Below, piece after piece: positions 1,905 to 32,483 of a stretch of DNA of 36,272 nt (position 1 is the stretch's first letter; the number at the start of each line of letters is the position of its first letter). The notes beneath the pieces are model-generated. The model saw nothing but the letters and a program-made list of their open reading frames with translations, did not search any database and was not told the origin of the DNA. Source of the stretch: a virus (Duplodnaviria > Caudoviricetes); the IMG/VR virus record IMGVR_UViG_3300032258_000006, positions 1 through 36,272 of that record; one strand, 5' to 3'. A program made the position numbers and the translations under genes.

Positions 1905-2165
1905 TGCCTTGTTGCCAGTTCCAGGTGTAATTGACCACCACTCAATAACCTCATCACCCTCGTACTGTAATAGCTCAATCATTGAGTCCTCGCTAATCCA
2001 TTTATTATCCCTGTCAACGTAGGCTAAGAGGTTGATGATTTGCCCATCACCCATGCAGTTATCTTTATAACGGATAGCCACTATTTCGTTGGCAGCAGGC
2101 ATAACAAGCCGTTCGTTTTGACCATCAACCGCGTGGTCTTGTTTGTTTTTATTTTGCTCTGGCAT
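1899..2165 (-). CDS. Cassette 6 hypothetical protein; N-terminus encoded inside the attC
   Basis: ATG 2165 with purine-rich RBS inside site 2099-2225; alternative ATG in the R'' box. Confidence 0.7.
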   Translation of the reverse strand: MPEQNKNKQDHAVDGQNERLVMPAANEIVAIRYKDNCMGDGQIINLLAYVDRDNKWISEDSMIELLQYEGDEVIEWWSITPGTGNKAA

Positions 2166-2225
2166 TTCACCTACCCTCTTAAATTCATCTCTCGGTTGCT
2201 GGCAACACAACATAAAATGTTAGGC
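2099..2225 (+). other. Long attC-like site (127 nt) containing antisense RBS and ATG
   Basis: GCATAAC aagcc gtt[C]gttttg[A]ccatcaaccg ... cggttgctgg-caacac-aac ataaaat GTTAGGC. Confidence 0.85.
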
Positions 2226-2226
2226 G

Positions 2227-2502
2227 TCAATCTAAAAGGTCTTCGCTAGTTGCGCTTGAATATAGTGGGGTATACGTACCTCTACAAAAATAATTCTCAT
2301 CGCAAGAAGGGCAGCATACCTCTTCCATTTCTTCTTTGGGCGCAATAGCAAACAGATCATTGTTACTATCAATCATCTCATCATCGGTCATGGTGTAGTC
2401 ACATCGGGGGCATGTTGGCTTGCAGTCATCACGCCTAACAATCTCATTGTTCTGACCCGCTACCGCATCAGTCTTTGATGTTTCAGCTTGTTCGTTGCTC
2501 AT
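2227..2502 (-). CDS. Cassette 7 putative zinc-ribbon protein (CPRC...CPSC); N-terminus encoded inside the attC
   Basis: Two CxxC motifs; ATG 2502 with AAGGA RBS inside site 2433-2561. Confidence 0.75.
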   Translation of the reverse strand: MSNEQAETSKTDAVAGQNNEIVRRDDCKPTCPRCDYTMTDDEMIDSNNDLFAIAPKEEMEEVCCPSCDENYFCRGTYTPLYSSATSEDLLD

Positions 2503-2561
2503 CGTTTCAATCCTTAATTTGGTGCATTTTGTCGCAGGCAGCACATGCTAGTCAGTTATGC
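2433..2561 (+). other. Long attC-like site (129 nt) containing antisense RBS and ATG
   Basis: GCCTAAC aatct cat[T]gttctg[A]cccgctac ... gtcgcagg-cagcac-atg ctagtca GTTATGC. Confidence 0.85.
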
Positions 2562-2777: not shown

Positions 2778-2865
2778 GTATAACAAATATTTTCAAATTG
2801 ACGCTTTCCGCGCCACTCGTTACTTCATGCGCCGTTAGTGGCGCAACTTAAAATGGTAGTTATGT
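2778..2865 (+). other. attC-like site (family copy 3)
   Basis: GTATAAC aaata ttt[C]aaattg[A]cgc ... gcg-caactt-aaa atggta GTTATGT; right half identical to 655-743. Confidence 0.87.
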
Positions 2866-3135
2866 TGCCTTTAATCTTTCTAGATCAATAAAAACAGCCA
2901 GTCTTTTGTAGCCATTCGGCTCAACCGATCTAATTGTCTTTTTTACTCCTGAGATTATTGTTAACTTTTTTAGTTCAACGCAGTCAAAGCATGGAGTATC
3001 AACTTCAACATTAAAAAATATTTTAGTTTGATGCACCTGTAAGCCGCCAAAATAAGGGCAACAATTAAGTAAAAGTCCTGTATGCTTTTTAATAAAAGAC
3101 AACGCTAAGTCTATAATTTCGTTCTCGTGCATCAA
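2860..3135 (-). CDS. Cassette 9 hypothetical protein, AT-rich
   Basis: GAGG RBS; stop in R' box of 2778-2865. Confidence 0.7.
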   Translation of the reverse strand: MMHENEIIDLALSFIKKHTGLLLNCCPYFGGLQVHQTKIFFNVEVDTPCFDCVELKKLTIISGVKKTIRSVEPNGYKRLAVFIDLERLKAT

Positions 3136-3157: not shown

Positions 3158-3177
3158 ACATAACATAAGTGTTATCT
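3158..3177. other. Collapsed att-like core ACATAAC-6nt-GTTATCT
   Basis: R''- and R'-like heptamers 6 nt apart, exactly between cassette 9 and the initiator stop codon. Confidence 0.45.
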
Positions 3178-26458: not shown

Positions 26459-26610
26459 AGAAGCTATTAATAATAGGTTTTTTATCAAGTCTGCTTATGG
26501 TCACAGCCGTAAATAGCAATCTAACCTTTGCAATTCAAGCCGGCATGCTATTAGCGGGGGCATCGACTCTACTGACATGCGCGTCTTACTTGCTTATCAA
26601 GTATTTTTAA
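26455..26610 (+). CDS. Small membrane protein (51 aa, not in ORF track)
   Basis: GAGGAG RBS; MKKLLIIGFLSSLL... two hydrophobic segments. Confidence 0.6.
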   Translation: MKKLLIIGFLSSLLMVTAVNSNLTFAIQAGMLLAGASTLLTCASYLLIKYF

Positions 26611-26621
26611 CTGGGACTACC

Positions 26622-26825
26622 ATGGATAACGATAAAAAAGTTAAGCCGATAACATTAACCGGGCAGAATGGCGAAATAATGAAACTTGCCCCAAGCCACC
26701 AACCAAATTCTAAACTCGTTGATTTTGAATTCATAGGAAACGAAGAATATTTCCTTGCGGCTCTTGAGCCGAGCGAGTTAAAGGAAATTCAGGTGTTTTT
26801 GAATGAGCACCTTGGCAATGCATAA
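26622..26825 (+). CDS. Hypothetical protein ending in att core
   Basis: ATG 26622; TAA stop within GCATAAC. Confidence 0.65.
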   Translation: MDNDKKVKPITLTGQNGEIMKLAPSHQPNSKLVDFEFIGNEEYFLAALEPSELKEIQVFLNEHLGNA

Positions 26826-26888
26826 CATTGCGGATAAGCCGTAAACGAGCGCCAGCGAAGTGCATCGGATTAATGCGCTTGGTTATGT
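26820..26888 (-). other. attC-like site (top strand = minus)
   Basis: Minus strand: ACATAAC caagcg cat[T]aatccg[A] ... cggctt-atc cgcaat GTTATGC. Confidence 0.75.
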
Positions 26889-26925
26889 GCCGCTCTATAT
26901 TCTTTTGCTTTATTTGGTTTAACCC

Positions 26926-26954
26926 TTGACAGTTGCGCGCAACTATGAGATGAT
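26926..26954 (+). promoter_or_regulatory. Promoter with palindromic operator
   Basis: TTGACA-17 nt-GATGAT; perfect palindrome AGTTGCGCGCAACT at 26931-26944. Confidence 0.6.
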
Positions 26955-27001
26955 AGCTACAAGTTAAAGAGATAAACAAATAACTCAAAGGGGTTCATCA
27001 A

Positions 27002-27543: not shown

Positions 27544-27819
27544 ATGAACGAATCTGACAAAGCGATAAAGAGGGCTGAAATCATAAGCAGCATCAAAGCG
27601 GCTCATCAGGATATAGAAGATAATCAGCGGGCGCTAAATAGGGTTGTAGGTGGCAAGCTGGAATATCAGCCAAGCGCGTATTGTGTCGAGGGATACCATC
27701 AAAGAATACGAGAGGGCAAGGCCAGGCTGAAAGATCTTAATGGTGAGCTAGGTGAACTAGTTGGCGATGTTGTAGATGTGGGTGGTTTGCCATCAATACT
27801 AAAGCCGCAAGCAGGGTAA
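27544..27819 (+). CDS. Hypothetical protein
   Basis: MNESDKA start after GGGG/AGGG; LPSILKPQAG end with stop in GGGTAAC. Confidence 0.7.
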   Translation: MNESDKAIKRAEIISSIKAAHQDIEDNQRALNRVVGGKLEYQPSAYCVEGYHQRIREGKARLKDLNGELGELVGDVVDVGGLPSILKPQAG

Positions 27820-27934
27820 CGTTTAGTTGTGTGGGCTGAGCCAATGAGGAATTAAAAAATGACAACTGAAAACACTGAACCAACAAACAACGACGAGCTA
27901 AGCGGCGAAGCTCCAAACAAACGGCGTGTTATGC
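27814..27934 (-). other. Long attC-like site (121 nt) containing RBS and ATG of the next gene
   Basis: Minus strand: GCATAAC acgcc gtt[T]gtttgg[A]gc ... gc-ccacac-aac taaac GTTACCC. Confidence 0.8.
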
Positions 27935-28155
27935 CTAAAGTAGTCATTGACGGAGTTGAGTACATACCTGCCAAGAACGTTGTGGCTAATGAAATGGCAA
28001 TAGCTAAAGGGTTGTTGATGCAATTCTGGGGGGTGTGCAGCGATGAAAAGGCAACCGAATTGATTAACGACAAATCCATAAGCGTTGTGGTTACTGACGA
28101 GTACCAAGGGGAATCCCTGAGAAGTGTGCTAGATGAGATAGCTAAGCAGGCATAA
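27859..28155 (+). CDS. Cassette protein with attC-encoded leader and KVVIDGVEYIP motif
   Basis: GAGGA RBS and ATG inside attC; stop in GCATAAC of site B. Confidence 0.8.
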   Translation: MTTENTEPTNNDELSGEAPNKRRVMPKVVIDGVEYIPAKNVVANEMAIAKGLLMQFWGVCSDEKATELINDKSISVVVTDEYQGESLRSVLDEIAKQA

Positions 28156-28200
28156 CAAGGGGTAGGCCCCAAAGTGGGGTATAGGCCCGATATTACGCGG
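28150..28200 (-). other. attI-like array-terminal site B
   Basis: Minus strand ccgc...tataccccactttggggcctaccccttGTTATGC; homologous to 76-126. Confidence 0.55.
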
Positions 28201-28234
28201 CAATTAAGACACTTAATAATTAGAGGGTAATGAT

Positions 28235-32081: not shown

Positions 32082-32483
32082 ATGTCTAGAAACATAAAGC
32101 CACCAGTTACGCCAGGTGAAGACCCTAAAGGGAATGCTATAAATTCATATGTTGCTGAAAATCAAGCAGATCAAGCAGATCAAGCAGATCAAGCAGATCA
32201 AGCAGGCGATGCCGAAAATGATAATATGATCACTATGTCGAAAGCAGATATGGAAGCTCTGATAGAACAAGGGGTTGAAAGCCGCGTTGTTTCTGAGGTT
32301 AAAAAAGCAAAACGACTATCTGTAGCCAGTCCGTCCGGTTCTTCTTCTGCATTACCAAAACAGTCAGATATCGACCCGCGAAAGATAAAGCGCGCAGTAT
32401 TAACGCAAGAAGGCTGGGTGTGTCCGCTGGTTCATTCTACTGATCGTGCGGCTTTAGATCGTGGGCAAGGTAACTTAAAATAA
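32082..32483 (+). CDS. Hypothetical late protein
   Basis: AAGGAG RBS; VLTQEGWVCP motif; QAD repeats. Confidence 0.75.
   Translation: MSRNIKPPVTPGEDPKGNAINSYVAENQADQADQADQADQAGDAENDNMITMSKADMEALIEQGVESRVVSEVKKAKRLSVASPSGSSSALPKQSDIDPRKIKRAVLTQEGWVCPLVHSTDRAALDRGQGNLK
32161..32205 (+). repeat. In-frame tandem repeat (atcaagcag)x5
   Basis: Five perfect 9-mers. Confidence 0.9.

Follow-up and report, generated by a model that had tools for sequence, protein, structure and literature searches.

The locus described here raises the question of whether an integron recombination site can itself supply the signals from which a captured gene is translated. The window, by which we mean the whole stretch of 36,272 nt that was analysed, is a tailed phage genome of roughly 36.1 kb with a 132-nt overlap between its ends; the record is rated 92% complete, and the window proteins include portal, terminase, capsid and tail proteins, an Erf-like protein, SSB, NinB/NinG and replication functions. 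No tyrosine recombinase is present among the 54 window ORFs or in a six-frame search of the genome, and PF00589 has zero matches at E 1 over the whole genome searched in this way. The window contains no intI beside an attI, the mark of a complete integron, and instead has a cluster of attC sites without a nearby integrase (a CALIN). Neither the array nor its proteins have relatives among GenBank phages or plasmids, Rfam gives no match, and a promoter scan of the window found 7 promoters against 8.8 expected. The genome is listed for one DNA run, from a sediment metagenome that may be its source sample, and for no RNA run; the contigs of that DNA run contain no cassette joint and do not cover the three long sites discussed below. 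Elsewhere in the window a 9-nt unit present four times (32160–32205) encodes QADQADQADQA within the ORF at 32082–32483.

The sites were located with a purpose-written attC detector, which in 416 kb of shuffled DNA gave 3 matches at a score of at least 21 and none at 23 or above, and which in the window yields eight sites between 347 and 2865 plus one at 27814. The shorter members of the main array, all in the minus orientation, are the low-scoring (18) attC-like S2 (86 nt, 347–432), S3 (89 nt, 655–743), behind which lies a gene with its own ribosome binding site (RBS), S4 (89 nt, 1000–1088; 95% like S3), S5 (70 nt, 1530–1599; a detector call), S6 (60 nt, 1845–1904; textbook geometry with an extra G) and S9 (88 nt, 2778–2865; 89% like S3). 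Immediately after the replication gene the array is closed by a bodyless site, S10 (3158–3177), which consists of two cores separated by 6 nt. The left one is the same as the core at 2859–2865, and the 2860–3135 cassette may have lost its attC body. Further right there is an isolated short attC-like site (26820–26888, plus strand) with the same polarity relative to the local genes, for which no matching partner core was identified; after it comes sequence without ORFs, in which a TTGACA box lies upstream of gene 27002, and 26820–27000 is possibly a promoter-carrying cassette.

These sites have the inverted cores RYYYAAC/GTTRRRY, paired L boxes and lengths of about 57–141 nt that characterise attC, with some cores such as GTTATGC deviating from strict RRRY, like many bacterial cores. 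What sets the array apart is its polarity. By the arm on which the extra base lies, the bottom strand of every detected window site is the coding strand, and all six cassette genes that were scored lie on it; none of the six has the classical form, a top-strand gene followed by its attC. Each unit has the form of a gene cassette, a single gene flanked by a core and the complementary inverse of that core. In the main array, 8 of 9 core pairs that flank a gene are complementary and the ninth has a single mismatch, against 0 of 9 for the two cores of one site (permutation p 8e-5); at the single cassette at 27820–28155 the flanking cores are perfectly complementary. This is the pattern expected of shuffled cassettes. 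We also note that proteins 746–976 and 27859–28155 both open with a KV.I..VEY.P motif, and that a protein on another viral contig (L342) joins MPKVIIDGIEYVP to a body resembling 746–976, suggesting a shared N-terminal module.

Three of the sites are unusually long, and the sequence-only reading that drew attention to them proposed that each holds an RBS and an ATG in the central loop of its bottom strand, read in frame into the adjacent gene. Both the sites and the signals are present. S7 (127 nt, 2099–2225, minus) contains an RBS at 2174–2179 (AGAGGG) and an ATG at 2165, 20 codons from the GTT valine; S8 (129 nt, 2433–2561, minus) an RBS at 2511–2516 (TAAGGA) and an ATG at 2502, 21 codons from the valine; and a 121-nt site at 27814–27934 (plus) an RBS at 27846–27850 (GAGGA) and an ATG at 27859, 23 codons from the valine. 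These ATGs lie 60, 63 and 69 nt, respectively, ahead of the G of GTT, there is no stop codon between any of them and its gene, and the three leader peptides read as first given. The genes opened in this way encode 88 aa (1899–2165, minus; its stop is the TAA in R' of S6, and no homologues were found), a 91-aa CxxC...CxxC protein (2227–2502, minus) of a family that is usually 63–85 aa long and leaderless, and 98 aa (27859–28155, plus); the last belongs to the single cassette, with an attC body 5' of the gene and none 3', and the start of its leaderless homologues maps to an ATG inside R''. The suggestion that 2227–2502 needs the loop ATG to include its first CxxC is borne out, the next in-frame ATG falling beyond that motif; the other two genes, 1899 and 27859, also have an in-frame ATG within R''.

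Predicted anti-Shine-Dalgarno pairing is -7.0, -5.9 and -6.3 kcal/mol for the loop starts of the 2099, 2433 and 27814 sites, and -5.9 to -9.3 kcal/mol for the first gene starts behind five short window sites. The alternative starts downstream of the sites lack an RBS, all of those in frame at the three long sites giving only -1.7 to +1.0 kcal/mol. The probability that an RBS and start open into the gene frame by chance is 0.086, 0.041 and 0.014 for the three sites (2000 shuffles per loop). The three hairpins are predicted to hold the only good RBS and start for their genes, which is, at the level of sequence, the aid given by ORF-11, where a gene without an RBS and start of its own draws on those of a recombination site.

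As hairpins the three are weak. Each has the extrahelical base on its R''-L'' arm (a G in L'' at 2099–2225, an A at the 2433 and 27814 sites), and the R'-side arms of 2099 and 2433 exceed the detector's standard geometry by one base. Compared with shuffled sequences they fold no better (z -0.13, -0.65 and +0.61; unconstrained folding), and the recombinogenic hairpin is not their minimum-energy fold. For the recombinogenic fold the predicted probabilities are 0.059, 0.0034 and 3e-5, all within the range of 16 Vibrio sites (2e-5 to 0.71, median 0.069), and because of the last value we regard 27814–27934 as a weak site. The leaders, described in the sequence-only reading as similar in length and composition, share only a loose identity (8 of 21, 4 of 21 and 3 of 22 residues, counted back from the valine); an ESM Atlas search with their region yielded nothing above 0.86. 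Upstream of the loop ATGs the frames of S7 and S8 continue without a stop for 16 and 14 codons (2166–2213 and 2503–2544), to an ATG and a GTG. On the loop side of the 27814 site, 27890–27905 includes a 12-nt identity with the left arm of an attC of Pseudoalteromonas phage H101, either chance or a nested remnant. At 26601–26682 the likely N-terminus of ORF 26577–26825 ends GQNGEIM, resembling the S8 leader GQNNEIV, and is possibly a decayed head.

The ends of the arrays bear on what is mobile. Dock A (57–126, plus), with a predicted crossover between the G and TT of GTT at 120/121, is repeated in the 132-nt end overlap, and dock B (28150–28215, minus) is homologous to it up to the GTTATG core; by their geometry we regard both as putative attI-like sites. 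We had tried 36–126 as an attC and dropped it, its 3' part aligning with dock B. The cassette at 27820–28155 has an attC body ahead of its gene and a dock behind it, from which we infer that the mobile unit is the head, as we term a hairpin so placed, plus the gene; ordinary shuffling would for that reason not lend a head elsewhere. The same dock geometry is present beside intI in 8 of 20 bacterial regions, in one of them with the same CGTCA..TGACG palindrome, and similar array ends are seen by eye in other viral contigs. A scan with the dock pattern gave 0 viral loci and 7 phage matches attributable to chance; as a pointer to the host it was rejected, since 8 matches in genome contigs share the pattern alone and look like chance.

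We then asked how widely such starts occur, using a viral set drawn from two attC-arm pattern scans with no RBS or ATG in the pattern (at least 122 loci each) together with further scans; a first arm pattern had given 3 loci, 1 of them real. Long sites were taken as those of 100 nt or more, and a fusion as an RBS and ATG or GTG fused to 40 or more codons. Among the matches listed, 18 of 38 scorable long viral sites (2 more were skipped at contig ends) carry a fused leader, with 1.2 expected from loop shuffling and 1.5 from a frameshift null; these counts are not independent, there being several sites per contig, some long calls are probably false, and one of the 18 fusions (L001) was found with a window-derived pattern. 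On the top strand of the listed viral matches there are no fusions (0/39), and at their short sites 3 in 43. None is seen at 64 long bacterial sites (20 regions beside intI in a Pseudomonadota sample, 16 of which had sites) or at 20 long sites in prophage-borne arrays of Vibrio and Shewanella. We regard the observation as confirmed at sequence level, being real and apparently general in phages. Homologous long sites often lack an RBS or ATG, which speaks against a fixed module: G005 has 18 listed sites, many of them related, with one fusion and two short ORFs. Nor does the GTT-valine frame of the three window sites hold for the class, the fusions among the viral matches listed being in frames 0, +1 and +2 at 7, 10 and 1 sites; by eye, frame 0 leaders are polar, and those in frame +1 often have a hydrophobic stretch before a lipobox-like Cys.

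The reversed polarity is similarly widespread. Among the matches listed, 38 of 45 viral cassettes have their longest ORF on the bottom strand, the other 7 being conventional. In bacteria the count is 9 of 106 for integron regions and 3 of 23 for prophage-borne arrays; one Vibrio cassette has a clear reversed gene. In 24 of 36 cassettes from the listed matches the stop codon is the TAA of R'. A fused leader and an RBS of the gene's own exclude each other: among 40 long bottom-oriented sites in the matches listed (those of the window among them; 24 of the 107 sites were left out, being top-oriented or tied) an own RBS is found for 1 of 18 fused and 13 of 22 unfused genes (p 0.0006). Predicted folding differs little between the two kinds, with medians of 0.073 for leader-bearing long sites (n=18) and 0.024 for those with an own RBS (n=14), no clear difference. 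PF00589 is matched in 1 of 10 array-bearing viral contigs, most of them incomplete. A 205-aa recombinase near the array of one contig (L354:439–1056) was rejected as an IntI, at 17.5 bits against an NCBIfam cut-off of 265; it is a catalytic-domain-only tyrosine recombinase, 1.3 kb upstream of the reversed array in a provirus. Other listed contigs contain DNA methyltransferase genes with reading frames opening within attC sites (L217:816–1625, L224:1046–1858 and L231:4133–4768), and small lipoprotein-like proteins, related by eye, behind three different attC heads (L115, L225 and L263:3334–3531; the L115 and L225 bodies are 54% identical).

Comparison with homologues places the joint between head and gene. 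The CxxC protein has 70 homologues, and none shows the window leader; in the 58 that could be measured the first Cys is preceded by a median of 11 residues (range 3–40), compared with 30 in the window protein, and the codon after GTT coincides with the Met of the top match. At 21 viral loci the family occurs in three settings: 18 lack a flanking attC, two are cassettes with their own RBS (L356 and L360), and one (L354) is headed. In the last a 131-nt head supplies a different 32-aa leader in the same frame and at the same junction as in the window, the mature parts being identical at 56 of 70 positions. At 61%, identity between the S8 and L354 bodies reaches the 95th percentile for bodies that are unrelated (median 53%, n=739), and the two may instead be one old head that diverged fast. 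For the 27859 protein all five homologues are leaderless, three beginning MPKV at the ATG inside R'', and as a query it finds no viral locus; DNA homology with the 77% identical L339, which has its own RBS, begins at the TTATG of R'', and a dock-like palindrome follows the L339 stop. A C5 methyltransferase on an unrelated contig shows residue 1 of M.HaeIII aligned to the codon that follows GTT (query 32 to chain 5). The 1899–2165 protein has no homologue, and the 427–663 gene has one, 86% identical, without a surrounding site, flanking attC calls being found at 0 of 62 loci of its family.

Near-identical heads also precede unrelated genes. Four pairs of bodies are 98%, 92%, 88% and 74% identical with downstream DNA at 52–56%, and in an aligned pair homology stops at R''; one shared head is fused in one cassette and in another forms a 27-aa ORF over the next start. 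As judged from these alignments, heads and genes occur in different combinations joined at R''.

We consider it quite probable that translation starts in the loop, that such starts are kept where a gene has none, and that a host integrase moves head plus gene. The three sites would be reversed attC sites, each placed ahead of its own gene in an integrase-free phage, their loop RBS and ATG serving, in frame, as the start for genes without a start signal; the hairpin likely serves as an exchangeable "head" that would let a start-less gene be translated. The host integron integrase would act by the usual bottom-strand crossover at R', moving a head and its gene as one unit, and the head-gene joint at R'' would be made or remade rarely, by cassette formation or top-strand crossover. 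Joints severing a gene's own RBS would persist only with a start supplied by the head, either in frame or by coupling; polar leaders would be tolerated by-products whose sequence matters little, and in frame +1 the same arm would be read as a lipoprotein signal-like segment. The proposal that the site makes an expressed gene of a captured frame therefore survives in part: a start within the site, above chance, is found almost only where the gene has no signal of its own, but ordinary shuffling would not switch on a new frame, and because ordinary recombination moves a head with its own gene, new fusions need exchange at R''. That joint may have arisen by capture or exchange at R'', or by deletion of a native RBS between short repeats, as L339 would allow; the routes differ in history and not in present function.

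The deletion route can stand as an explanation in itself, with a cassette's own RBS behind R'' lost by a short deletion and the gene rescued by a loop start, old or new. L339 has 28 nt, including the RBS, between two TTATG repeats (in R'' and at the start codon), whose deletion yields the window junction; many related long sites have no start; and in L356 and L360 the CxxC gene is a cassette with its own RBS. Alone, it leaves unexplained why the same gene has two dissimilar heads at one junction and why near-identical heads precede unrelated genes with homology ending at R'', and the site upstream of L339 is unrelated to the window's head. We regard it as a serious possibility that falls somewhat short of probable; it is compatible with the preferred reading on present function, and under it heads would say little on the first making of cassettes. 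If instead the loop starts acted mainly in ribosome loading or coupling, the functional protein would come from a downstream ATG (that in R'' for 1899 and 27859) or the leader would be removed. ORF-11 in attI1 acts so, according to the available text of PMC8876359; short ORFs stop at the start of the next gene in L235 (27 aa), L351_5578 (26 aa) and L356_2092 (23 aa); and the ATGs within R'' of 1899 and 27859 could serve reinitiation. We think this unlikely given that the three window frames run into their genes without a stop, that neither 2227–2502 nor its L354 homologue has an ATG before the first CxxC, and that frame +1 heads give the hydrophobic part of lipoprotein-type signals, as assigned by eye.

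A recombinase of another kind, cutting at R'', would make a mirror-image system in which the head is lent to whichever cassette follows. The bodyless site at 3158–3177 does resemble a simple site at the promoter-proximal end, and heads and genes do occur in several combinations; the attI-like docks, however, are at the opposite end and oriented as R' crossover would require, the body of the single cassette stands ahead of its gene, most genes behind short sites are not in frame with GTT, and two H101 sites of the same reversed polarity recombine via the bottom strand with IntI1, as described in the available part of PMC9892861. On this evidence we find a mirror-image system very improbable. 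Chance would require only that A-rich loops hold RBS-like words and ATGs, the leaders being annotation artefacts, and both the single-site probabilities of up to 0.086 and the weakness of the hairpins fit it. It is hard to reconcile with the excess of fusions among the listed viral sites over the 1.2 expected and their absence from the other strand and from bacterial sites, with the mutual exclusion of fusion and own RBS, or with an independent head (L354) supplying the same gene in frame, and we take it to be extremely unlikely.

Ordinary phage genes are found site-free, as cassettes with their own RBS, or as cassettes with an attC head, joined at or near the start codon, and this provides specific junctions for the question of cassette origin. 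It also suggests that phages use host integrases for a mirror-image gene pool, and for annotators it means that some N-terminal extensions and lipoprotein signals of small phage proteins derive from attC arms. The link of heads to cassette creation is a matter of inference. A more ambitious and rather doubtful idea is that reversed phage cassettes shuffle N-termini in nature and preserve a record of how cassettes are born: an integrase crossover at R'' would join a ready-made attC head, bringing a start with or without an export signal, to the start codon of a phage gene, an R' crossover would close the cassette at the stop codon, and heads would later be swapped. The first making of integron cassettes is described as largely unknown in the available text of PMC5371416; if the idea is true, cassette genesis would be reproducible in the laboratory with IntI and a phage-type attC.

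The closest known relatives are the phage attC clusters of Qi et al. 2023 (PMC9892861), which likewise lie in integrase-free phages; according to the available portion of that paper, five of the six phage sites that were assayed recombined with attI1 via IntI1, and that portion does not describe bottom-strand genes, starts inside attC or attI-like docks in such phages. In the cultured Pseudoalteromonas phage H101 (KR534323 76000–78600; L375) the annotated CALIN genes are on the attC bottom strand, with short sites and genes that have their own RBS, and since this phage has the reversed layout part of the proposal is bench-testable; in TJE1 the one cassette bounded by the detector is conventional. 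We found no description of reversed phage cassettes or of starts inside attC in open-licence PubMed Central and bioRxiv, and the available texts of PMC8618304, PMC5371416, PMC13323075 and bioRxiv preprints contain neither.

The nearest functional parallels are ORF-11, ORF-17 and ORF-18 in attI1 and short ORFs inside attC, which supply an RBS and start to the cassettes without one, about 20% (PMC8876359, available text). That aid comes, in the same text, from a fixed platform or the attC of an upstream cassette, on the top strand, mainly by coupling and depending on position, whereas the phage heads act from the bottom strand, by in-frame fusion and within the gene's own cassette. ORF-11 itself lies in attI and ends at a stop in the cassette core; the window starts lie in attC and are fused in frame at all three sites. 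Synthetic attC sites placed in coding sequence have an arm that codes for protein and yet recombines (Nivina et al. 2020, PMC7439510, available text); those sites were engineered, and the phage sites would be natural recombination sites coding for protein, with an RBS and start in the loop. In architecture the phage cassettes share with classical ones their R and L boxes, an extra base on the R''-L'' arm, a length of 57–141 nt driven by the loop, and matched cores (PMC2727003, PMC5027507 and PMC5371416, each in its available text). The extra base directs crossover to R', A, T or C being tolerated as the extrahelical base (PMC2727003, available text), and top-strand crossover at R'' is reported to have a frequency 1000–10000 times lower (PMC5027507, available text). 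They differ from classical cassettes in that the gene is inverted relative to attC, with R'' meeting the start codon and R' the stop codon, and on this comparison the reversed, headed phage cassette appears to be a new variant on the integron cassette.
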